Shown: piece after piece, positions 19,726-32,786 of the stretch
Layout of the letters: each line of letters opens with the position of its first letter
How positions within the stretch are numbered: the stretch's first letter is position 1
Origin: a virus
Taxonomy: Duplodnaviria > Caudoviricetes
Reading direction: 5' to 3' (one strand)
IMG/VR virus record: IMGVR_UViG_2855946969_000005
Coordinates: 1 to 64,000 of that record
DNA: 64,000 nucleotides
Program-made: the position numbers and the translations under genes
Notes under the pieces: model-generated
What the model was told of the DNA's origin: nothing
The model's database searches: none
What the model saw: only the letters and a program-made list of their open reading frames with translations

Positions 19726-19881
19726 AGATGCGCAAAGCAAAAGGCCCCGCGTCATCGCAGGGCCTCTGATCCAAGGTCGGTTGTGCGCGAAATTCTCGCT
19801 GGGGACAAGCGGTTTTGCTCGCCGCGTCACCTAGTCGTCGCAGGATCGGTTATGGCCCAAGTTCCAGCGCCGGTCTAGGGG
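19726..19881 (-). promoter_or_regulatory. conserved non-coding element, copy 2
   Basis: Collinear with 9612-9764. Confidence 0.65.
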
Positions 19882-20060
19882 GAGCCAAGATCGCAGCGCC
19901 CCCTCGGCCCGGCAAGTACGGCGCCGATGGAGTCCAGGGGACGGACCGCATCAGGCTATATCTCAAATCGCAGTCGCACCGTAGCATCAGAGGCGCATTA
20001 GGTCGTATCAATCGAGCCGCCGTCAATCAGTGCGGCTCATTAAGAGGTCCGGGGGAAGCG

Positions 20061-21256
20061 GTGGCCAACAAGAAAAGGCAGCACTTTATCCCCAAATATG
20101 TACTTAGGAATTTTGCGGTTGACGGCCACAAAGCGCCCAAGGACAGAAAGCAGATTGCCCTATACAATCTCAATAAGGGTTTTTCTGTGCGCGCTGCGTC
20201 ACTTAAAGAGCAATGCTATCGAGATTATATGTACGGGAAAGATCTCGTTCTTGAGGACCATCTCGGGATAATGGAGGGCGTATTCGGGGAGATCACAACA
20301 AACGCAATAAGCAGGAATGCCCTTAGCCGAAGCTTTGATGACATAGCTGCCATTGCATTTATGGTCGCGCTACAGAAAGGCCGAACTGCTGCTTCAGAAG
20401 ACGATGCCAACTCCATGGTCGACAAGATGATGAAGATGGTAGCCTACGGGCGATTTCCTCGGGAGCAGCTTGAGCAGTTCAAAATAGGACTTACAAACGC
20501 CGCTGGCATCAACATCACGGCGGCAATGCGCGCTAGCCCTGTCATATTCGATCTAAAGCAGAAGCTTATACTTAACAAAACCAAGACACCATTCGTTTTG
20601 TCCGACAATCCCGTTTGCATGACAAACTTTTTTGCCGCAGAAAATTCGGCGAGGAGTTTGGCCTCGGCCTGGCTGCTGCGGGCCTGCAAATCTATATGCC
20701 AGTCTCGTCGTCGCATGCTCTGATTTTGTATGACGGAAATGTTTACTCATGCGACTCAGGAAATGCAATATCAATCAGCAATGTCGACGAGATATGGGCC
20801 TTAAACAGGATATCCTATTTCAATTCGAGGGAGAACATATATTTCAATGGGAATCTGTCGGAGACAGATATCTCGCGCTTCCGACAAATGGGCAAGCCGG
20901 CCAACGGCGAAGTCTTTGAGCGTCTGGAGGAAGTCGGCCCAGGGACTTACAGGCTCACCCAAAAAGACGAATATGAGGGGCCGTCAGAAGGGGTGACATC
21001 TGAGATCATCAGGTTCGGCAAACAACACCTCCCAGAAGATATCCGACTGCGCGCGTTGCGCCTGCGCAACAAACCGCAATATCACTATAATGGAACGCTG
21101 GCTGGCCCCCAGCGGGATCCGGCGTGGCTCGAAATCGTTGATGACTTTTCTGGACTTTTAGAGAAAAAGTTTGTCAAACTAACGCGGATACTGGACTATG
21201 CAAAAAATCATGCGTTGCGGGATCGCGTGGGATCCTGGATCAACAGGGTCGATTGA
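20061..21256 (+). pseudogene. DUF4238-like protein split by a frameshift (or sequencing error) in a T6 tract
   Basis: KRQHFIPKYVLRNF, FVLSDNPV and LQIYMPVS motifs lie in two frames joined at TTTTTT 20628-20633. Low GC. Confidence 0.75.
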
Positions 21257-24131: not shown

Positions 24132-24451
24132 CAGCGGAGACTTTCGAGCATCGTGCGCGCCCACCAATGTAGTGCACCCGAGACCAAGGTCCAAACGACC
24201 ATCGTGAGCAGGGTTAGCTGACCGGGAGGGGGCGCAGCCGCGAGGGGGTAGCTGAGCCCGACAAGGGGCAGCACGACGCCTCCTCCGAACAGGCCGAGCG
24301 CCGTGGTGTTGATCGTGGTGGCCGAGAGCTTGGCCTTCTCGTTGTGGATCGCCGTCAGGCGCGCCAGCGCCGCGTTCGCCTCGTTCAGGCGCTCGATCTC
24401 GATAAGCCGGAGGTCTTCCCTCTGGGACTCGGGCTGGGCGGTGCCGGTCAC
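24131..24451 (-). CDS. two-TM membrane protein
   Basis: HNEKAKLSAT..N followed by two hydrophobic segments, coupled to the XRE gene. Confidence 0.6.
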   Translation of the reverse strand: MTGTAQPESQREDLRLIEIERLNEANAALARLTAIHNEKAKLSATTINTTALGLFGGGVVLPLVGLSYPLAAAPPPGQLTLLTMVVWTLVSGALHWWARTMLESLR

Positions 24452-24702
24452 GCCTGAGGGTCTTTCAGGCGGACGCCTGCGCCCTCAGCCCCTCCTGGAA
24501 TGAAGGCGATGCCCGCCGATTCAAGGGCGGCCTGAAGGTCGTCAACCGTCCGCTCTCTCACCTGCCGCTTCGCTTGCTCAAAATCGGCAATGGCCGCGCG
24601 CGAGACCTTGCTGGCCGCAGCAAGATCCTCGCGGCTCCAGTCCAAAAGCGCTCGCGCCGCTCGACACTGAGCCCCGGTTATCGTCTTTTCGTCGGAATTC
24701 AT
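24448..24702 (-). CDS. XRE-family HTH regulator (island 2)
   Basis: ITGAQCRAARALLDWSREDLA...IADFE...LESAGIAFI...GAGVRL. Confidence 0.9.
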   Translation of the reverse strand: MNSDEKTITGAQCRAARALLDWSREDLAAASKVSRAAIADFEQAKRQVRERTVDDLQAALESAGIAFIPGGAEGAGVRLKDPQA

Positions 24703-24772
24703 GCAAAATGACTTGCCAAGGCCGGTTTCAGTCGATATAACTGAAATCACACGAACCGCCAAGGCTCTTCTG

Positions 24773-25063
24773 ATGCCCCGCACCCTCTCCTGGAATAACG
24801 CCCTTCGCGGCCTCCACGCTGACCGCGCCGCTGTCGTCCCTGGTCTCGCCGGTGCCCGCGCCATGGTCCAGACCTTCGCCCGCACCCGCGGCGCGCTGGT
24901 CGTCGCCGGCCAGTTCGATCGCAAGGCGATCATGGCTCACGCTGCCGCCGCCGCGAAGCTCCACCAGCGCCGGTACGGCGGCACCTGGGCCGAGGCGATG
25001 TCCGTCGCGCTTCGCGCCTCGTGGCAGGCCGCGCGCGCCGTGCGCCCGGCAACCCGGCACTGA
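24773..25063 (+). CDS. hypothetical protein, paralogue of 12526-12822
   Basis: Same motifs and same divergent arrangement with an XRE gene. Confidence 0.8.
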   Translation: MPRTLSWNNALRGLHADRAAVVPGLAGARAMVQTFARTRGALVVAGQFDRKAIMAHAAAAAKLHQRRYGGTWAEAMSVALRASWQAARAVRPATRH

Positions 25064-25075
25064 GGGGAAGGCACG

Positions 25076-25381
25076 ATGGCCGAACACACCATGCAGACCT
25101 CGCTCACCGTGTCCCTCGGGCACGGCGAAGACCGCGAGTTCGATCTGAGCGTCACCTACCGCTTCATCCCTGGCTACCCGGCAACGCGGGACGAGCCCGG
25201 CGCCGACCACGATGCGGACATTCTGTCGGTTCGGCTGGTCGCGCCCGGTTCGGACGCCAGCCTGCCGGTCCCGGAGTGGATGGACGCCCTCCTGCGGAAC
25301 GATGAGATCCTGCGGACCTGTCTGGCGATGGACGGCCGCGAGCGCGAGGCCGCGGCCCGCGAAGACGCGCAGTCTCACTGA
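25076..25381 (+). CDS. hypothetical protein
   Basis: RBS and packing in the + strand operon. Confidence 0.65.
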   Translation: MAEHTMQTSLTVSLGHGEDREFDLSVTYRFIPGYPATRDEPGADHDADILSVRLVAPGSDASLPVPEWMDALLRNDEILRTCLAMDGREREAAAREDAQSH

Positions 25382-25394
25382 GGGGGAGGAGCCG

Positions 25395-25595
25395 ATGTCC
25401 TCTCTCGCCGATCGCTCCCGCGCCCGCCGCCGCCCGCCGAGCCGGGCCGAGGTGGAAACGATGATCGAGACCCTGATCGCCTACCTCGACGTGCTCGACG
25501 GGGATCCAGATCTCGAGACCGAGGAACCTGAAGCCGGCGCCCGCGAGTGGTGCGGCTCTGGCGCCCACCGCTTCGATGTCGGGGCGGAGTCCTAG
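25395..25595 (+). CDS. small hypothetical protein
   Basis: IETLIAYLDVLDGDPDLE motif, RBS GGAGG. Confidence 0.6.
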   Translation: MSSLADRSRARRRPPSRAEVETMIETLIAYLDVLDGDPDLETEEPEAGAREWCGSGAHRFDVGAES

Positions 25596-25633
25596 CACCG
25601 CCCACCAACACAGATCCGGCCGCAGGGCCGGAA

Positions 25634-25772
25634 GCGCCCAGCGGCCATGTAGAGAGTGAGACCCACTACGCGCCTGCCGCCGGGCGCACACCAACCCTGA
25701 GATCCGGCTTCGGCCGGAAGCGGTCGGCGGCCAGGTGAATCATGGCCCCAACGGGACGTTGCCGCCGACCGC
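25634..25772 (+). ncRNA. two TIGR-like stem-loop dual-spacer units
   Basis: stem-CCA-TGTAGAGAG-TGAGACCCA-CTACGCGCC-TG-stem (25634-25687) and stem-CCA-GGTGAATCA-TGGCCCCA-ACGGGACGT-TG-stem (25720-25772). Confidence 0.75.
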
Positions 25773-25823
25773 ACCCCGAACCCAACCGATCCACCAAGCC
25801 GAGCCCCGCCGGGAGCCCGACCC

Positions 25824-26243
25824 ATGCCCCATGTCCCGACCCACGCCGACCCGATCCAAGGCGCCATCACCGACCACCGGAAGGCATGGGCTGCGTTTCA
25901 GGTCGCCCCGGCCGGCAATCCGTCACTGGTCGCGGAGCAGACGCTCGATGGGACGCTGAGCACCCTCCTGCTCACACCCTGCAAAAGCCGAGGCGGCGCG
26001 GTGGCCCTCCTGCAGCACCTTCAGTGGTGGATCGCCGAAGAGGCGCCCTACGCAGACTCGTTCGCCCCGCTCTACGCATTCGCGGAGACCCGGGCCGCCG
26101 ATCTGGCGCTGTTCCTGAACGCGCAGCCGCCCGCCGACGTCGAGCGCGAGGCGGAGGCCCGCCGCGTCGCCCACGCGCCGCGCCCGCCGGGCCCGCCCGC
26201 CAACGACCTCTGCACCTTCCGCGATCCGCGGCCTGCCTCGTAG
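25824..26243 (+). CDS. hypothetical protein
   Basis: DPI..AI.DHR.AW, TPC.S..G..ALL. Contains near-matches to the two upstream guide units. Confidence 0.65.
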   Translation: MPHVPTHADPIQGAITDHRKAWAAFQVAPAGNPSLVAEQTLDGTLSTLLLTPCKSRGGAVALLQHLQWWIAEEAPYADSFAPLYAFAETRAADLALFLNAQPPADVEREAEARRVAHAPRPPGPPANDLCTFRDPRPAS

Positions 26244-26291
26244 CGCGCCGTCTCGCCCGTCTGCCTGCCCCTCAAGCCTCAGGAGCCATCC

Positions 26292-26699
26292 ATGCGAACC
26301 GCTATGTCCCGCCGCGGCCTTCTGACCGTCGCCGCCCTGCCGGCCCTGGCCGCGCCCACGTTCGCCGCCTTGGCGGACGTCCAGCCCGACGCGGCGCTGA
26401 TCCGCGACTGCGACCGCGCAATCGCTATGCACGACGAGACGAGCCAGCGCGCGATCAATGAGAACTGGTCCGACGAGCGGCTTGAAGAGGCGTGCGACGA
26501 GTTCAACGTCCTCGCTGAAGGGATCATCGCTACACCCGCCCTCACGCAGGCCGGGTTGCGCGCCAAGGCACGGATCGTCGCGCAACAGGTCACGGCCTAT
26601 GCCAGCGACACGCCGGACCAGAGCGAGCGCTTCGCGCTCAGCCTGCTCCGCGATCTCGGCGCCGAGCCGCCCCGCCGCGAGGCGAGCGCCGCGCAGTAG
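26292..26699 (+). CDS. twin-arginine-like hypothetical protein
   Basis: SRRGLL...PDAALI...TPALTQAGLRAKAR. Confidence 0.7.
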   Translation: MRTAMSRRGLLTVAALPALAAPTFAALADVQPDAALIRDCDRAIAMHDETSQRAINENWSDERLEEACDEFNVLAEGIIATPALTQAGLRAKARIVAQQVTAYASDTPDQSERFALSLLRDLGAEPPRREASAAQ

Positions 26700-26763
26700 G
26701 GCGCGCACCGTCCCGCCCGTCACCCCTCAATTCTCGACACCCCGGAGCCAAGGAGGCCCACCG

Positions 26764-27132
26764 ATGTCCCTTCTGCCCCATAGCACCGATAACGTGATCC
26801 GCCTCGCGCAGGTCGGGCTCCGCCCGCAGGCGCCTGCGCCCGAGCCCAAGGCCGGAGACCTGATGGTCGATGAGCGGGCGTGGTGCGACAAGCACCTGAG
26901 CACCACACTCGGCGCCGCCCGCATCGTCTCGATGCCGCGCGCCGACCTGATGACGAACCTCGCCGCCCTGCGCGAGAGCGGCCCGGCTGAGATGCCCGGC
27001 GTGCTCGGCGACATCGGCGCCACGATCCTTGAGCTTGAGCGCATGGTCGGCATGCTCAGTCTCGCACAGGATCGGATCTACTCCACCGTCGCCGCCTTGA
27101 TCGCGGCAGAAGCCGCGGAGGTGCGCCAGTGA
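26764..27132 (+). CDS. hypothetical protein
   Basis: RBS AAGGAGG, start MSLLPHSTDNVIRL. Confidence 0.6.
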   Translation: MSLLPHSTDNVIRLAQVGLRPQAPAPEPKAGDLMVDERAWCDKHLSTTLGAARIVSMPRADLMTNLAALRESGPAEMPGVLGDIGATILELERMVGMLSLAQDRIYSTVAALIAAEAAEVRQ

Positions 27133-27512
27133 GCGCCGCAGGGCTGAGCCCTGCCCGCCGCGGCTTCCTCCGAGGCCTCGTCTCGCTCCCGCTCATCGGC
27201 GGCGGCGTGACGCTCATCGGCGCGCCCACGGCCGTCGCCCAGCCCGTCACACCTGGGCTTCTCGACGCCTACGCGGATTGGCTGGCCGTCGAGTACGGCG
27301 AGACCCTGATCGAGCGGAACGGGATGCAGCACCGCGAGGACTACAGGCAGTCTCTCGCGATCATGAAGTTCCGGCGCGAGTGGTGCCAGGAGAACCCGAC
27401 GCTCAACGCGGCGGGCAATAGGTTCCTGTCGCCGCCCGCCACGCTGCCGAGCGCGCGCGCTGCCGTCGTGCTGGCTGCGGCGGGCCAGAACTGGCGGGAG
27501 GGCGGACGATGA
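27129..27512 (+). CDS. twin-arginine-like hypothetical protein
   Basis: RRGFLRGLVSLPLIGGG...PSARAAVVL. Confidence 0.65.
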   Translation: MSAAGLSPARRGFLRGLVSLPLIGGGVTLIGAPTAVAQPVTPGLLDAYADWLAVEYGETLIERNGMQHREDYRQSLAIMKFRREWCQENPTLNAAGNRFLSPPATLPSARAAVVLAAAGQNWREGGR

Positions 27513-28291
27513 GCCGCCCCTTCAACCGCCGCGGGCTACTCGGCGCCTTCGCGCTCGCGCCGCTCACCGCCGCACCCGCGCTGGCGACCGCCCACCCTGA
27601 CGCCGAGATACTGAGGCTTGAGCGGCAGTGGCGCCAAGCCGGCGAGGTGCTTGCGGACTCGCTGCGCGAACTCAACGCCGCGCGTGACATCGTTCACCCC
27701 GTACTTTCGGAGTGGCCCGCCTCCCTGGCTCGGACCCCGTGGGAGCAGCGGCAGGACGACTGTCTCAACAACGTGTTCGTCCGGATGCGCGTGCGGTTCC
27801 GCTGGACCCCGCCACGAGACGAAAGCGGGTTCAGCGCAGCAGTGTGGACGGGGGCAGGCCTCCGCCGTGCCATCGCGGGGGCTGTGCCGCACCTGGGGCG
27901 TGGCGGGCTCACGCCGCATCGCATCCGCAGATGGAAGGCACTGCTCCCGCAGGCGGACGCTTTCGACAGCAGGGTTGAGGCCGCGGAAGCCCGCGCAGGG
28001 CTGAAGGCCGCCGAGGCTAGGAAGCGGGAGGCTGAGCGCGTGCGGGGGGAGGCCACCGGGGCGCTCTCGGCGTGTGTCGCCACCACCCCAGAAGGATTGG
28101 CGGCCCTGGTCCGCGTCGTCGGCGGGTATCGGTGGAAGGATGAGGGCGGCGCGTGGCCGAACCTTCTCCGTAGCGCCGCCATCGTGTCGGGCGTCGGTCT
28201 CGATGCGCTGGAACACCAGCACGCCTCTCTGCGCGGCCCTGAGGTGGCTGCCGCCCCCGCCCCGCAGCGCAAGTCCGGTGCGCGCAGCTAG
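27509..28291 (+). CDS. twin-arginine-like hypothetical protein
   Basis: NRRGLLGA...HPDAEILRL...ATTPEGLAA. Confidence 0.65.
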   Translation: MSRPFNRRGLLGAFALAPLTAAPALATAHPDAEILRLERQWRQAGEVLADSLRELNAARDIVHPVLSEWPASLARTPWEQRQDDCLNNVFVRMRVRFRWTPPRDESGFSAAVWTGAGLRRAIAGAVPHLGRGGLTPHRIRRWKALLPQADAFDSRVEAAEARAGLKAAEARKREAERVRGEATGALSACVATTPEGLAALVRVVGGYRWKDEGGAWPNLLRSAAIVSGVGLDALEHQHASLRGPEVAAAPAPQRKSGARS

Positions 28292-28328
28292 TCGCGCCTC
28301 GCTCCCTCGCACCTCTGGAGCCCACACC

Positions 28329-29009
28329 ATGGGATCAATGAATCACGCTCCATCGCGCCGGGGCATGCTGGCGGGCCTCGCGGCCGCGCCGCTGGCCGCG
28401 CTGCCGATCGCCACGGCAGCATTCGCCCTGAACCCCGATACTGCCCTCCTGGCGCTCGGCCGGCGCTGGCGCGAGGCGGTTGCTGCACGCGAGGCCGTCA
28501 GCGAGCATGCGGATGCGTGTGCAACCGCCGCGCACCGCGCCGCGCCGGGACTTCCCGAGGCCGTGCTGTACCGGGAGGGCGATGACGCCCTCGACATCGC
28601 CCACTTCACCTCAGCCCGCGGCGACGGGCGGCGCTGGTACAGCGTCGGCACCAGCGCCTGTGACGGGAAGGCATCTTGGATGCGGGCGATGGTGCATGGG
28701 CCGCAGACGCCGCGCGCGGTGCGCGCGACCGAGATCGTCGCAGCGTTCGATGCGTGGCGCGCCGCCTGCCAAGCCACACACGACGCATGCGGGCTGACGG
28801 CCGCGGATTCGGCTTGGGAGGAGGCCTGCGAGCGCGTCAGCGAGATCGAAGACCACATCAGCGCAGCGACCGCCCACACGCCTGCTGGGCTTGCCGTGAA
28901 GGCGCGCATCGCTGAGCAGGACATAGAGGCCGGCAACAAGCCTGCCCAAGCCCTGCTGGCCGGTCTCGTGCGCGACGTTCTCGCCATCGCTGAACCGGCC
29001 GGATCGTAG
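28329..29009 (+). CDS. twin-arginine-like hypothetical protein
   Basis: SRRGMLAGLAAA...PDTALLALG...AHTPAGLAVKAR. Confidence 0.7.
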   Translation: MGSMNHAPSRRGMLAGLAAAPLAALPIATAAFALNPDTALLALGRRWREAVAAREAVSEHADACATAAHRAAPGLPEAVLYREGDDALDIAHFTSARGDGRRWYSVGTSACDGKASWMRAMVHGPQTPRAVRATEIVAAFDAWRAACQATHDACGLTAADSAWEEACERVSEIEDHISAATAHTPAGLAVKARIAEQDIEAGNKPAQALLAGLVRDVLAIAEPAGS

Positions 29010-29017
29010 GGGAGGGG

Positions 29018-29566
29018 ATGGCTATGGCCACCGCATCGCAACGAAATTCGTCGGCTGACGCTGTTGCCCAAGCCGCCCGCGCCGCGCTGAAAACGGCCAA
29101 TGGCGATGTCCGCACCGCTTCGGTCGCGCTCGAGGCGCGCGTGCGCCGGGATCGCGCCTTGCGGGACGCGCTCACCGATCCCTTGCTCGCCACCGCCTGC
29201 TACACGGCCGTGGCCGTTCAAGTCCGGCAGGCTCGGCGTTCGGTTTGGGCTGCACCCGCGGCGTCCCGCCAAGAGGCCGCGGCCGCGCCTCAGCGACGGG
29301 CCCCGGAGGATGCGCGCCGAGTCGCTCAGCTCGCGGCCGGCACGCTGGCCATGTTCCCGTTACCCGGCGGCAAGCGCCTCGGTGAGGCGACCCGGGAGGA
29401 GATTGCCGCGGCGGCCTCGTTCTACGAGGCGCAGAGCGCGGACATGGCGGACAAAGCCCGATGGCTCCGCCTGATCGCCCAGAGCGTGCCGCACGCGAAG
29501 AAGGTCGGCGACGTGCTCAACGAGCGCCGCTTGCGCGAATTGCAGACGGAGGCGCGTCGTGGATAG
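29018..29566 (+). CDS. hypothetical protein translationally coupled to the Tas-like gene
   Basis: FPLPGGKRLGEATREE. The stop overlaps the GTG of the next ORF. Confidence 0.65.
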   Translation: MAMATASQRNSSADAVAQAARAALKTANGDVRTASVALEARVRRDRALRDALTDPLLATACYTAVAVQVRQARRSVWAAPAASRQEAAAAPQRRAPEDARRVAQLAAGTLAMFPLPGGKRLGEATREEIAAAASFYEAQSADMADKARWLRLIAQSVPHAKKVGDVLNERRLRELQTEARRG

Positions 29567-30566
29567 GATCGAGTTGCCGGGCAAGCCCCGGCGCGGCCGG
29601 GCGGCCAGAAGGGATTTGTCCCCCAATGATGGCACGCCGCCCGCCGCACCCCATTCCGAGATCGGCGCCAGCGCCGATCGCGAGGCCGGCCACTGTTCCG
29701 ATGCGCCCCATAGAAGCGCTGCCGGTCTCGCACCCCATTCAGAGATCGTCAGCCGCGAGGCTGGCGAGGGCGAGGTCGGCCCTTCGTCCTGCGAACCCCA
29801 AGTACCGCCTGCCGACCTCGCCGACCAAATCGCCGAGCTCCGTGAGCAGTGGCGCCGCCGCCAAGCCTGGCATCGCGCTGAGAAGGCGCTGACGCTTCAG
29901 GCCAAGGCGCTGTGCCGCCGCCTCGCGGAGGGCGGTGACAAGGCGGAAGCGGATCGCATCTACGGCGCCGCCTACGGCAAGGGCTCGCATCCTCTGGCCG
30001 ACATCGCCCTCGCGGCGACCTTCCCGTTAACCGAGGCACGGGACAGCATCGCGAAGCACCGGGCGGCCGTGGAGAAGCGGCTCGTCAAGCTGGCGAAGGC
30101 GCTCCCGGTCGCGCCGTGGGTCGAGGGTACGCGCGGCGTCGGGCTGCTCTCGCTAGCAGCGATCGTGGGCGAGGCCGGCGATCTCGGCGCCTACGCGAAC
30201 CCGGCCAAGCTATGGAAGCGCATGGGTCTGGCCATCATGCCGGATGGGCGGCAGCGGCGGACCACGGGAGCGGCGGCGCTCGACCATGGGTATTCGCCGG
30301 CGCGGCGCTCCGTCGTCTGGAATATCGGCGCCTGCATCATGAAGGCTGGCGGGCCGCTGAAAGAGATCTACGACGCACGGAAACTATACGAACTGCCGCG
30401 CGTCGAGACGAAAGGACATGCTCACAACCGCGCTCAGCGGTACGTTGAGAAGCGATTTCTTCGCTTGCTCTGGTGCGAGTGGAGAAAAGGCGGGGGCGAC
30501 CACCGCGGCCCTGACACCCATAGGACGCGTGTCGCCTCCGTCACCCCCATTCCGGACGCCGCGTGA
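29559..30566 (+). CDS. IS110-C-terminal/Nop-like RNA-binding protein lacking RuvC (TIGR-Tas-like, nuclease-less)
   Basis: Coiled coil followed by GVGLLSLAAIVGEAGDL..Y.NPAKLWKRMGLA...RR...GYSP.RRS and H..A.RY..K.FL..LW. No DEDD RuvC domain. Flanked by dual-spacer hairpin units. Confidence 0.75.
   Translation: MDRIELPGKPRRGRAARRDLSPNDGTPPAAPHSEIGASADREAGHCSDAPHRSAAGLAPHSEIVSREAGEGEVGPSSCEPQVPPADLADQIAELREQWRRRQAWHRAEKALTLQAKALCRRLAEGGDKAEADRIYGAAYGKGSHPLADIALAATFPLTEARDSIAKHRAAVEKRLVKLAKALPVAPWVEGTRGVGLLSLAAIVGEAGDLGAYANPAKLWKRMGLAIMPDGRQRRTTGAAALDHGYSPARRSVVWNIGACIMKAGGPLKEIYDARKLYELPRVETKGHAHNRAQRYVEKRFLRLLWCEWRKGGGDHRGPDTHRTRVASVTPIPDAA
29598..29822 (+). ncRNA. three TIGR-like stem-loop dual-spacer units
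   Basis: Units 29598-29643 (GAAGGGATT/ATGATGGCA), 29680-29731 (CTGTTCCGA/TAGAAGCGC) and 29769-29822 (TTCGTCCTG/AGTACCGCC). Each has a 30-nt CA-N9-TGN4CCA-N9-T core (minor variants) closed by a GC stem. Confidence 0.8.
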
Positions 30567-30627
30567 GCGGCGAGGCGGGCGCGCCCAGTGGCACTCTGGC
30601 GCCCTTATCAGGAATGGCGCGCCCGCC
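30491..30627 (+). ncRNA. two TIGR-like stem-loop dual-spacer units
   Basis: 30491-30540 (CCGCGGCCC/TAGGACGCG) and 30574-30627 (GTGGCACTC/TATCAGGAA). Confidence 0.8.
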
Positions 30628-30780
30628 GCCCAACTACCCCGCCGCGAGCGCAGCCCGGCAGCTCGACGGCCCGCGGCAGCGGGCGGCGCTCCCCGCCTTC
30701 GTGAGGCGCCGCCTCGTGGAGGGCGCCTGAGTGCCCCTCCGCCACGCCCTACTGCGCCGCATCCTCAAGGGAGACGACCC

Positions 30781-31332
30781 ATGCAGAACGTCGTGACCGT
30801 CCCGTTCCACGCCGACACCGTGTTCGCCGTCGAGCGCGCGGATGGGGTCTACATCGCCCTCAAGCCGATCGCCGACCGGCTCGGGCTCGACTGGTCCGCG
30901 CAGTACCGCCGAACCAAGCGCGATGTGGTGATGGCCCGAGGGATTGCCGTCATGGCAATACCTTCCGAGGGCGGCACGCAGGACGCGCTCTGCCTCCGCC
31001 TGCCACTCCTGCCGGGGTGGCTGTTCGGCATTGAGGTCCGCCGCGTGCGGGCCGAGTGCCGGGCCGCCGTGCTGGTCTATCAAGCCGAATGTCACGAGGC
31101 TCTTTTCCGGCACTTCTACGGCGTGGCGGACCGGGCGCCCGAGGCGCCGGACGCCCGGCGCGAGCCGCTGAAGGTGCGGCGGCAGATCGTGACGGAGGCC
31201 CGGCTGATCTTCGGGCCGCGGGCAGCTGCGGCGCTCTGGCGTTCGCTCGGCCTACCCGACGTGACGGAAATGGGCGCGCCGCCGGATCAAGGCGCGCTGC
31301 CGCTGGCACCGCCGAGCCCGCCTGCGCCTTAG
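30781..31332 (+). CDS. phage antirepressor (P22 Ant N-terminal-like domain)
   Basis: VPFH...YIALKPI...LGLDWSAQYRR...GG.Q...CL.L..LPGWLFGI...YQ.EC..ALF.HF. Confidence 0.85.
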   Translation: MQNVVTVPFHADTVFAVERADGVYIALKPIADRLGLDWSAQYRRTKRDVVMARGIAVMAIPSEGGTQDALCLRLPLLPGWLFGIEVRRVRAECRAAVLVYQAECHEALFRHFYGVADRAPEAPDARREPLKVRRQIVTEARLIFGPRAAAALWRSLGLPDVTEMGAPPDQGALPLAPPSPPAP

Positions 31333-31374
31333 GGCCACCTGACAGCGGGCCACGGGCGTCTCTGACTTCCAAAT

Positions 31375-31389
31375 GTTCTTGTTTTGTGC
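31375..31389 (+). promoter_or_regulatory. degenerate LexA box
   Basis: GTTC-TTGTTTT-GTGC, one mismatch from GTTC-N7-GTTC, 15 bp before an ATG. Confidence 0.5.
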
Positions 31390-31403
31390 TAGAGGCGAAG
31401 CTA

Positions 31404-32786
31404 ATGGGCGCTCCACCTCCGACGATCTACACCATCTACACCATTACTAATACCGTCAATGGTAAGATATATGTAGGACGCTCCAAAGAATATGAGCGCA
31501 GAAAACAAGCTCACCTGAATTGGTCCCGTCGTGGCGACAAGCCAAGGCATCCTCTATATAACTCAATCCGCAAGTACGGTGAGGAAGTTTTCGCTTTTGA
31601 AGTGATTGCGGATCTGGCCGGGTACGAAGAGTCTTTAGCGGCTGAGAAGACTCTGATATCGGAGCTGGGGACAACCAAACGAGATCGGGGATACAACATA
31701 TCCGATGGAGGTGAGGATATCCTATCTGCTATAAAAGCCAACGTCGCGCGGATAGAATTATGGAGGAAAGAGGATCCAGAAGGGTTCAAGGCTTACTATT
31801 CAGCCTTGAACAAGGCCGGCTGCGCTAGCCTGACCTTGGAGGCGAGGCAAGCAACAATACGGAAAGCCCATATAACAATGGGGCCAGCTGCAATGCGCGC
31901 CCGATTGTCAGCGACCAGAGCCGCACTGTCCCCGGCGGACCTGCGGGCCAACGCCGCGAAAGCACTCGCCACCCTCGGGCCCGAAGGTCGGAAAGCACGA
32001 GCACGCGCCGCCGTGGCCACCCTCGGTCCAGAGGGGCTAAGCGCCCGCGCCAAGAAAACGGTCGCGGCACAATCTCCCGAAGCGCGGAGCGATGCGCGCA
32101 GGCGTTCATGGAAGGCTCGGCGGGAGACATGGGCCAAACGTGCCGAACAAATCGGGCCGCCACCGACAATTACAGGTGCTCAACTGTTCGCCGCGCGGGA
32201 TCAATTGGGCTGGTCACGCCCTCGACTGTACGAATTGACAGGTGTAGGGCGCGGGACGATTGAAAACTTTGAGACAGGCGTTCGGCCAATGCCAGTCCAC
32301 AAGCTTGCGAAGATCGAGCGCGCCTTGACTGAGGCCGGCGTAGAAATATGTCATATTTCTGAGTTGTCTTCCGAATATACAGCCGACTTTAGTCCCCAAA
32401 ACCTGCCAATTTACCGCGAGAGGGCCAAGATTACGCAGGACGCTCTCTCGGAGATATCAGGTGTTCCAGCTTGGTTGATCAGGGATTACGAGCGGGGCGC
32501 CCGACCGATGCCCGGCTACAAGCTCGCCAAGATCGAGCGGGCCCTTGTCGCGCTCGGGCTTGACCTTGCGGTGCCGATCAAGCCCGAGCCGTCCGCCCCG
32601 GCCGACTTCGGTCCAGAGGAGGTAGCGCGGCGCAGAAAGGCGCTGTCGTGGTCTCGGGTCCGCCTATCCGAGGCGTCCGGCGTCCCGGTATGGTTGATCC
32701 TCGACTATGAGCACGGCAAGCGAGGCATACCGCCGAGGAAGCTCGCTCGGATCTGGGGCGCACTCACAGCGGGCACGCAAGACTGA
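31404..32786 (+). CDS. GIY-YIG endonuclease fused to helical repeats and three XRE-like HTH domains
   Basis: IYTITNTVNGKIYVGRS...R...H, IRKYG, GYN, repeats ATLGPEG, and three R..LGWSR..L/SGVP.WLI.DYE.G.R units. Confidence 0.75.
   Translation: MGAPPPTIYTIYTITNTVNGKIYVGRSKEYERRKQAHLNWSRRGDKPRHPLYNSIRKYGEEVFAFEVIADLAGYEESLAAEKTLISELGTTKRDRGYNISDGGEDILSAIKANVARIELWRKEDPEGFKAYYSALNKAGCASLTLEARQATIRKAHITMGPAAMRARLSATRAALSPADLRANAAKALATLGPEGRKARARAAVATLGPEGLSARAKKTVAAQSPEARSDARRRSWKARRETWAKRAEQIGPPPTITGAQLFAARDQLGWSRPRLYELTGVGRGTIENFETGVRPMPVHKLAKIERALTEAGVEICHISELSSEYTADFSPQNLPIYRERAKITQDALSEISGVPAWLIRDYERGARPMPGYKLAKIERALVALGLDLAVPIKPEPSAPADFGPEEVARRRKALSWSRVRLSEASGVPVWLILDYEHGKRGIPPRKLARIWGALTAGTQD

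Follow-up and report, generated by a model that had tools for sequence, protein, structure and literature searches.

TIGR-Tas systems were described only in 2025, and here we analyse two candidate genes for their guide RNAs (tigRNAs) in a 64,000-nucleotide (nt) stretch of phage DNA (positions 1 to 64,000 of IMG/VR record IMGVR_UViG_2855946969_000005; hereafter the window), together with tasA, the gene for a Tas-like protein that lies 3.8 kb from them. According to the sections of the sources available to us, a tigRNA is defined by two spacers of 8-12 nt, each with a box C on its 5' side and a box D on its 3' side (PMC12045711; 10.64898/2026.07.30.739390); box C is CCA, box D is UG, the two spacers are 9 nt long and a loop region of 9 nt runs from TG to CCA (PMC12045711; 10.64898/2026.07.30.739390; 10.64898/2026.09.09.750476 section 7). 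In the 'stem-loop' class, the edge repeats are replaced by variable palindromes (PMC12045711; 10.64898/2026.07.30.739390; 10.64898/2026.09.09.750476 sections 3, 5, 7). A CUU at the base of the stem, described as 'highly conserved', marks the processing site (10.64898/2026.09.09.750476 section 11), and stem-loop units located within genes map to disordered regions (10.64898/2026.09.09.750476 section 5). For TasA (MbTasA) and for dead TasR, both DNA binding and repression of transcription have been shown (10.64898/2026.09.09.750476 section 12); in the structures of PlTasA, where the protein is a dimer, a stem-loop guide makes two heteroduplexes of 9 bp, which lie on opposite strands (10.64898/2026.08.11.744272 section 5).

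The window, rich in GC (67%), belongs to a tailed phage or prophage, and the whole record (99,285 bases) is about 90% complete by CheckV estimate. Between an open reading frame (ORF) of 66 amino acids (aa) that ends at 25595 and a 139-aa ORF that starts at 25824 is a gap of 228 nt, inside which two units (distal units 1 and 2; Table 1) lie in tandem with a period of 86 nt. Each copy has the same order of parts: AGATC, a small hairpin, AGCG, a long stem enclosing approximately 31-32 nt and a C-rich tail (GCACACCAACCC in unit 1 and GCACCCCGAACCC in unit 2). A preliminary description of this DNA had placed the unit starts at 25634 and 25720, exactly right, and the small hairpin that it saw before each is present. 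Both units have 9+9-nt spacers and match all ten box letters. Of the five units found nearer to tasA (proximal units), three carry one or two box deviations, which makes the distal units no less canonical than the proximal ones. Folded as RNA, the region gives exactly four hairpins (-96.9 kcal/mol, z = -3.35, with none of 200 shuffles as good). Judged by sequence and fold, both elements can be assigned to the known kind of stem-loop tigRNA gene, in an unusual position, and we consider it likely that they are functional tigRNA genes of a prophage-borne TIGR-TasA system.

The pattern formed by the distal and proximal units together, seven in all, is far beyond chance. The strict pattern CCA-N9-TG-N1-12-CCA-N9-TG has seven matches in the window, four of which (25645, 25731, 29690 and 30500, all on the + strand) are flanked by at least 10 stem pairs, and both distal units are among these four. 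In 100 Markov simulations, the strict pattern was matched 1.03 times on average and never with a stem of at least 8 pairs. A relaxed scan (at most two box deviations, stem of at least 8 pairs) returned nine matches, seven of them in the stretch from 25.6 to 30.6 kb, on the + strand; the remaining two (22668 on the + strand and 60076 on the - strand) fit the simulated background (0-4 per window, 27 in 20 simulations). A covariance model, R1, was trained on 35 units taken from the window and from 12 related loci and was run with filters off. It recovers exactly those seven units at 40-55 bits and gives 19.7 bits to the next match in the window, which is not a unit; because the seven are part of the training set, the informative point is the gap to this next match. 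The whole 99-kb record likewise yields exactly seven units, all on the + strand. The stems of the 35 units covary: 87.1% of cells pair, compared with 67.5% in shuffles and 34-58% in slid controls (a percentage that is partly circular because the scanner required a stem), and there are 86 cells with a double change against 26.2 in shuffles, with none of 500 shuffles reaching 86. Information content is 0.03-0.47 bits in the spacer columns and 1.37-2.0 bits in the box columns.

Table 1. Features of the distal units, the tas cassette and their surroundings in the window.
Feature	Position	Strand	Details
Small linker hairpin before unit 1	25615-25632	+	TCCGGCC-GCAG-GGCCGGA; 7 bp, loop GCAG, AGATC in front; from sequence and fold
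Distal tigRNA unit 1	25633-25688	+	11-bp stem, 10/11 pairs; strict pattern; R1 46.9 bits
Unit 1, first half	CCA 25645-47; spacer A 25648-56	+	Spacer A TGTAGAGAG; then TG, loop AGAC, CCA
Unit 1, second half	Spacer B 25666-74; TG 25675-76	+	Spacer B CTACGCGCC; then closing stem
Small linker hairpin before unit 2	25703-25718	+	TCCGGC-TTCG-GCCGGA; 6 bp, UUCG loop, GAGATC in front
Distal tigRNA unit 2	25719-25773	+	12-bp stem, 11/12 pairs; strict pattern; R1 41.9 bits
Unit 2, first half	CCA 25731-33; spacer A 25734-42	+	Spacer A GGTGAATCA; then TG, loop GCC, CCA
Unit 2, second half	Spacer B 25751-59; TG 25760-61	+	Spacer B ACGGGACGT; then closing stem
Downstream ORF, 139 aa	25824-26243	+	Helical protein, unnamed family; 87 representatives at E <= 0.001; not a demonstrable target
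182-aa gene	29018-29566	+	Overlaps tas start by 8 nt
tasA, 335 aa	29559-30566	+	Coiled coil and Nop domain (PDB 9mty, NCBIfam, AF2, Foldseek)
Three proximal tigRNA units inside tasA 5' end	29593-29648, 29678-29733, 29768-29823	+	R1 40.2, 47.9, 50.1 bits
Proximal tigRNA unit inside tasA 3' end	30488-30543	+	R1 55.3 bits
Proximal tigRNA unit just downstream of tasA	30573-30628	+	R1 50.2 bits
Linker instances	25610-25632, 25698-25718, 29655-29680, 29740-29765, 30550-30572		Also in related loci L001, L002, L005, L011, L017

TasA is related to the known Tas proteins through its Nop domain. Residues 172-310 match the Nop domain of TasR (PDB 9MTY chain A; the accession is that given for the TasR structure in PMC12045711) with a phmmer E of 3.8e-14, NCBIfam NF052498 ('TIGR-Tas system RNA-guided endonuclease', TIGR_Tas_endo) matches at E 3.2e-26 (92.6 bits, with a cut-off of 100) and a PHROG annotated 'transposase' matches at E 2.2e-18. 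In an AlphaFold2 (AF2) model based on 27 homologues, residues 85-311 are helical and confidently predicted (pLDDT above 90 in most blocks) and the tails, residues 1-84 and 312-335, are disordered (pLDDT below 50). When this model is compared with the PDB by Foldseek, TasR and TasH chains take all of the first ten places (E 1.2e-7 to 1.2e-4), followed by IS621 (6e-3) and then, weakly, by Nop56/58 and Prp31. Its structured core consists of the coiled coil and the Nop domain only; no RuvC or HNH nuclease is present in the model and no Pfam nuclease family matches the protein. Since the nuclease domain is absent, we classify the protein as TasA. The intragenic units coincide exactly with these disordered tails, 29593-29823 encoding residues 12-88 and 30488-30543 residues 310-328, in agreement with 10.64898/2026.09.09.750476 section 5.

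We also observe that the first approximately 88 and the last approximately 25 codons of tasA (29559-29823 and 30488-30566) are tigRNA units and linkers read as protein, and the repeated APHSEI in TasA derives from the linker GCACCCCATTC(C/A)GAGATC. A second tas gene near the distal units was considered and discarded, as tblastn finds a single tas gene on the record. The proposal of the preliminary description that the TIGR-like units may be served in trans by the Tas-like gene about 3.8 kb away (3786 nt from the end of unit 2 to the start of the ORF at 29559) is supported by the anatomy of the units, the R1 gap and this single tas gene.

The 182-aa gene is a candidate for a Tas accessory protein gene. 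It lies directly upstream of tas in the closest relatives as well (15 tblastn matches, of which 14 loci are listed, at 45-62% identity). Its product belongs to no Pfam, PHROG or NCBIfam family; AF2 predicts a helical structure (pLDDT 78.6), for which Foldseek gives no match in the PDB at E <= 0.001. An identification as an extracytoplasmic function (ECF) sigma factor was dismissed, as that best Foldseek match, at E 1.4, is noise.

Relatives of TasA were found at 10 loci in genome contigs and 24 in IMG/VR, including Lichenihabitans, Methylobacterium iners, Caulobacterales and Brevundimonas. The scanner detects 113 co-directional units at these loci, which with the seven of the window make 120 units and 116 distinct spacer pairs. 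With R1 at E <= 0.01, 32 related loci (two duplicate loci were left out) contain 104 matches, 103 of them co-directional with tas. The family, its guides and their association are real, and the locus is a stem-loop TIGR-TasA system.

The one unusual feature, unmatched in the relatives examined, is the 3.8-kb gap, in which six ORFs separate the distal pair from tas; the five proximal units lie in or beside the gene. Relative to the tas match, the units of the 32 related loci all fall between about -2.3 and +1.1 kb, the -2.3-kb extreme being a single continuous 28-unit array in locus L031. The largest empty gap in the relatives, approximately 1.5 kb, is found in L002, before an opposite-strand unit. 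This unit (L002:8421-8476, - strand, 43.9 bits), approximately 1.5 kb upstream of tas in a Methylobacterium iners prophage, is the sole strong opposite-strand unit among the 104. The word 'orphan' does not occur in the available text of 10.64898/2026.09.09.750476, and no literature search was aimed at outlying or orphan tigRNA units. In three related loci (L001, L011 and L013), one or two units lie directly upstream of the 182-aa gene that precedes tas. These upstream units share the AGATC, small hairpin, AGCG linker and a CACCAAYCC tail with the distal pair; given this common linker and tail, the distal pair corresponds to the upstream sub-array of the relatives and has been displaced by gene shuffling, and the position of the relatives' units, directly upstream of the 182-aa gene and tas, indicates that the separation seen here is derived. 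The homologue of ORF 27129-27512 is located upstream of the units in L001 and L011 and downstream of the distal units here. The distal units themselves are not decayed.

Among 34 units of close relatives, 26 have the linker hairpin, the stems of which covary. The linker is specific to this clade and reads (G/C)AGAT(C/G) followed by a 6-7-bp hairpin, often with a GNRA or UUCG loop, at a unit period of approximately 85 nt; the distant arrays of L022, L028, L030 and L031 are packed at 48-65 nt without it. Motif and hairpin occur together in 10 of 26 units at loci with the 182-aa gene and in 1 of 82 at loci without it, counts that ignore relatedness; as the loci with the 182-aa gene are close kin, the association may simply be inherited. 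The 28 units of L031 (L031:7717-10778) have stems that alternate between two near-constant sequences, GCGGTCG/CGACCGC and GAGCCCGG/CCGGGCTC, with a 48/63-nt period, and with these repeat-like stems the stem-loop array resembles a dual-repeat array.

A mechanism can be proposed on this basis. All ORFs between approximately 24.7 and 32.8 kb and all seven units are on the + strand, with short gaps or none between them. The distal units would be transcribed rightward with the surrounding genes and, given the shared strand and the short gaps, would probably be released from one long early transcript. Excision would take place at the linkers, each of which carries the GAGAUC motif and a small tetraloop hairpin, and the excised units would load in trans onto a dimer of TasA, the only Tas protein of the record. 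Each of the two spacers would then pair with a different strand of the same contiguous 18-bp DNA site, which the TasA complex would block without cutting: because TasA has no nuclease domain, the expected outcome of this RNA-guided DNA binding is transcriptional blocking and not cleavage.

Several observations weigh against this functional reading. The NCBIfam score of TasA stays just below the curated cut-off, and the protein has no Pfam match even at E <= 10. None of the seven units has a CTT near either stem base, in a search from 8 nt outside it to 4 nt inside; since the CUU of the published systems is described as highly conserved, not as universal, we take its absence as a clade difference, and as processing here cannot use it, the conserved linker is the obvious candidate signal. 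The distal pair also has an atypical position: the 104 units of the 32 related loci all keep within about 2.3 kb of tas, and none of the ten relatives scanned whole (seven virus records and three bacterial genomes, for which 150 of several thousand first-look candidates were scored) has outlying units. Finally, no target was found. In the target geometry used, one strand of a contiguous 18-bp site reads spacer B and then the reverse complement of spacer A, a geometry that we infer from the residue and strand numbering in the available part of PMC13421893 and that no text states outright; the tests were therefore run in all four spacer arrangements. No arrangement gave a target: the seven guides match the 99-kb record at no more than 14/18 in the canonical arrangement and 15/18 in the controls. 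All-against-all comparison of the 116 spacer pairs with the 32 loci and the record gave no 17/18 or 18/18 site, and 16/18 sites numbered seven in the canonical arrangement and three, seven and three in the controls. The exact 18-mers of distal units 1 and 2 are both absent from IMG/VR. With up to two mismatches, four genomes bearing relatives contain one site, with two mismatches; with at most one mismatch, neither 18-mer is found in 301 genomes of the family to which the L002 Methylobacterium genome belongs, which may not be that of the host. Metagenome contigs, searched for the unit-2 18-mer, contain seven exact matches to it. These fall in six contexts with no relation to one another, among them a PAS protein and two different transposases, which is about what chance predicts for an 18-mer.

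Two observations on individual matches are recorded here. One of the seven metagenome matches (L039:144-161) lies in a transposase-like ORF, in the peptide ...DGTLIHHSDRGSQ, which we take to be an IS3-type transposase motif; it is a single match and consistent with chance. Within the window, proximal units 29605 and 29780 have 14/18 matches in the P22_AR_N antirepressor gene (30781-31332), at 30928-30945 (+ strand) and 30970-30987 (- strand). These are in same-strand arrangements (B+A and A+B), not in the canonical opposite-strand one; two 14/18 matches in 552 bp exceed the rough background of approximately 1 per composite per 99 kb, although the comparison was made post hoc.

The preliminary description had further claimed that the two distal units match the 139-aa ORF directly downstream as guides beside a diverged self copy. 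For unit 2, the match of 12/18 at 25948-25965 is there as described, with the same composite; it does not rise above chance. For unit 1, the match at 26060-26076 is 12/17 and not the 13/17 reported, and the 17-mer is out of register by one base, as it extends over 10 nt at the spacer-B end, one of them the T of box D, but over only seven of the nine nt of spacer A. Anchored on the boxes, the unit-1 18-mer scores 6/18 at this site and 11/18 at best anywhere in the gene; shifting unit 1 through 18 other registers gives best scores of only 10 to 12 in the gene. Matches of this quality are common: the window has 19 sites at 12/17 or better for unit 1 and 26 at 12/18 or better for unit 2, and a match as good is found in 11.9% (unit 1) and 13% (unit 2) of 420-nt windows, or 70.8% for unit 1 when anchored. 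Compared with their own flanks (600 nt on either side), the 116 units have a modal best score of 11-12/18, and the mean for the true geometry (11.17) does not differ from those of the three controls (11.09, 11.28 and 11.18; Wilcoxon p 0.15-0.71), with the same result at 1,500 nt on either side. The idea of a diverged self copy is not borne out by these chance-level matches, nor did alleles closer to the spacers emerge from the alignment of homologues: ten DNA homologues from IMG/VR score 10-12, none better than the resident gene. The peptides DGTLIH, GTLIH, YAPLY and YAPSL are absent from all 87 protein homologues, and the columns of the alignment vary. No tigRNA units occur at loci that encode a homologue (0 of 10; best R1 score 17.8 bits, E 0.28), so the juxtaposition of units and gene is specific to this phage. 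Taken together, the comparisons indicate that the resemblance is a coincidence: when a dual 9-nt guide is compared with a GC-rich gene nearby, 12/18 is the similarity expected as background and is no ground for assuming self-targeting.

These results bear directly on the alternatives to functional guides acting elsewhere. Were the guides directed at the downstream ORF or its alleles, the resident copy would have diverged to escape, as in an immunity cassette beside a self copy. Both best matches do fall on the sense strand of this one 420-nt gene in the canonical geometry, and with the composites of the preliminary description both are equalled jointly in only 1.7% of 420-nt windows; yet this fraction is taken before the free choice of register and of neighbouring gene, it rests on a unit-1 composite that drops one base, and it rises to 9.1% once the unit is anchored. 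Considering in addition that true and control geometries score alike in the flanks, that neither DNA nor protein homologues come closer to the spacers, that homologue-bearing loci lack units and that, with no exact 18-mer in IMG/VR, none of the seven metagenome matches is a homologue of the gene, we regard this explanation as the least probable of all. Hardly more credible is a role purely in cis, in which intercistronic hairpins stabilise, punctuate or attenuate the early transcript and are tigRNA-like by descent or chance, guiding nothing. The strongly folding 228-nt intercistronic gap within a long run of co-directional genes would suit such a role, and excision of the units would necessarily cut the polycistronic RNA between 25595 and 25824. 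Stabiliser hairpins have no need, however, of two box C/box D pairs at an exact 9-nt spacing and of hypervariable 9-nt segments. The terminator-like sites do include the first small hairpin, read on the - strand only, and neither hairpin qualifies as an intrinsic terminator on the + strand. A cis effect would moreover be compatible with guide release and not an alternative to it.

Somewhat less improbable, although still unlikely, is that the pair is a relic, stranded by the approximately 3.3 kb of genes between it and the tas cassette and no longer expressed, processed or used. That L001, L011 and L013 keep one or two units with the same linker directly upstream of the 182-aa gene and tas fits this view, as do the missing target and the absence of any relative with units so far from tas. 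Decay would be expected first at the 2-3-nt boxes, and these are perfect; the covarying stems and the linker hairpins, with their stable UUCG and GCAG loops, are intact, the model scores are within the range of the proximal units and the operon orientation is kept. The reading of the pair as functional tigRNA genes can also be extended, in a proposal that we advance tentatively and hold to be rather doubtful as a whole. The guide genes would no longer form one array but be scattered (at 25.6, 29.6-29.8 and 30.5-30.6 kb) over one early transcription unit of approximately 8 kb, each bracketed by the clade-specific linker that co-occurs with the 182-aa gene. As the outlying pair lies between the second small early gene and ORF 25824, excising it would inevitably sever the mRNA at that point, and guide maturation would then also serve the genes downstream as a switch of mRNA processing; recognition of the linker could be the task of the 182-aa partner. 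If true, such a snoRNA-like intergenic dispersal would stand naturally midway between arrays of guides and box C/D RNA genes that are dispersed.

The remaining features of the region are as follows. Repetitive extragenic palindromic (REP)-like or terminator hairpins were considered for the two elements and rejected, as there is no T-run and box structure is present. An Rfam gathering scan of the window returned no family and ARAGORN found no tRNA or tmRNA gene in it; a sigma-70 promoter scan of 24300-31500 gave no site, the sigma-70 model being uninformative for this type of host. Among the sequencing runs listed, one small run of unspecified type contains the stretch and none is an RNA run. 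The 139-aa downstream ORF was at one point taken for an orphan, as a word-index search found only the ORF itself, an identification dropped when a full HMMER search gave the 87 representatives (best approximately 50% identity). It has no Pfam or PHROG match, 41 members of its family show no Pfam match beyond one stray one, and ESM Atlas returns unnamed clusters only, with scores below 0.9. Between the distal units and tas, a common 44-nt repeat is present at 26310-26353, 27527-27570 and 28356-28399 (+ strand). It coincides with the start of the called ORFs at 26292 and 27509, and at ORF 26292 it translates as a twin-arginine-type signal peptide (MRTAMSRRGLLTVAALPALAAP...), which suggests a cluster of paralogous small exported proteins. 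Right after the antirepressor gene is a low-GC gene (31404-32786) with a GIY-YIG nuclease domain fused to three HTH_3 repeats, which looks like a homing-endonuclease-type insertion. At 19815-21256, in the lowest-GC part of the window (55%), a DUF4238 protein appears to be divided between two overlapping ORFs (profile positions 1-220 and 218-278), possibly through a frameshift.

Compared with IS110 and IS621, the locus has a related RNA-binding domain (NCBIfam transpos_IS110, E 1.9e-9 at model positions 118-341, although its 37.1 bits are far from the 140-bit cut-off; Foldseek 8wt6, E 6e-3) and guide segments in the loops of extended helices. Unlike IS110, it has no DEDD/RuvC-like N-terminal domain and no insertion sequence boundaries, and it has many single-loop units in place of one two-loop bridge RNA at the element end. 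An IS110 bridge RNA and recombinase were rejected as an identification on the same grounds: no DEDD domain (no Pfam DEDD_Tnp_IS110 or Transposase_20 at E <= 10) and seven units. With box C/D s(no)RNAs the locus shares a guide between box C and box D, a bipartite RNA, a dimeric Nop-domain protein and units scattered among genes. The box C/D consensus is not shared: RUGAUGA (RTGATGA) occurs in none of the seven units and CUGA (CTGA) in one, at no box position. Nop56/58 structures match TasA weakly (E 0.04 or worse), L7Ae and fibrillarin were not seen, although not searched for, and the known Tas systems target DNA, not RNA. The dual-repeat systems TaTasR (PDB 9MTY) and SpTasH (PDB 9W04) have the same box C/box D logic, two opposite-strand spacers of 9 (or 8) nt and the Nop fold; in contrast to them, the locus has no conserved edge or loop repeats, no 36-nt unit, no RuvC or HNH domain and no structured C-terminal processing loop, the last 24 residues of TasA being disordered and tigRNA-encoded.

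The locus is closest to the nuclease-less TasA systems with which we compared it, those of PlTasA from a Peromyscus gut contig (PMC12045711; 10.64898/2026.08.11.744272) and of BlTasA and MbTasA (10.64898/2026.09.09.750476), as far as the available parts of these sources describe them. Common to both are palindromic, sequence-variable stems around a CCA-spacer-UG-loop-CCA-spacer-UG core with 9-nt spacers and a TG-to-CCA region of approximately 9 nt, stem conservation confined to the bases beside the boxes, units upstream, downstream and inside tas, of which the intragenic ones encode disordered segments, a protein made of coiled coil and Nop domain with no nuclease, and a location on a phage or prophage element. 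The locus differs in that 3.8 kb and six ORFs separate two of its seven units from tas, a distance set here against the relatives examined and not against a published distribution, in the missing CUU at the stem bases (0/7) and in its linkers of approximately 30 nt with GAGATC and a tetraloop hairpin at a period of approximately 85 nt (48-65 nt in distant relatives). It differs further in its conserved 182-aa partner, which by any test run is not recognisably the ParB-like partner described in PMC12045711. The locus, a clean example from a nearly complete temperate phage of a GC-rich lineage of proteobacteria, bears on the natural targets and roles of the nuclease-less TasA branch. Combining intragenic units, a conserved partner gene and two fully canonical guides 3.8 kb away within the operon, it offers a convenient system in which to study guide action in trans over distance, tigRNA processing without CUU and the targets of prophage TasA repression.

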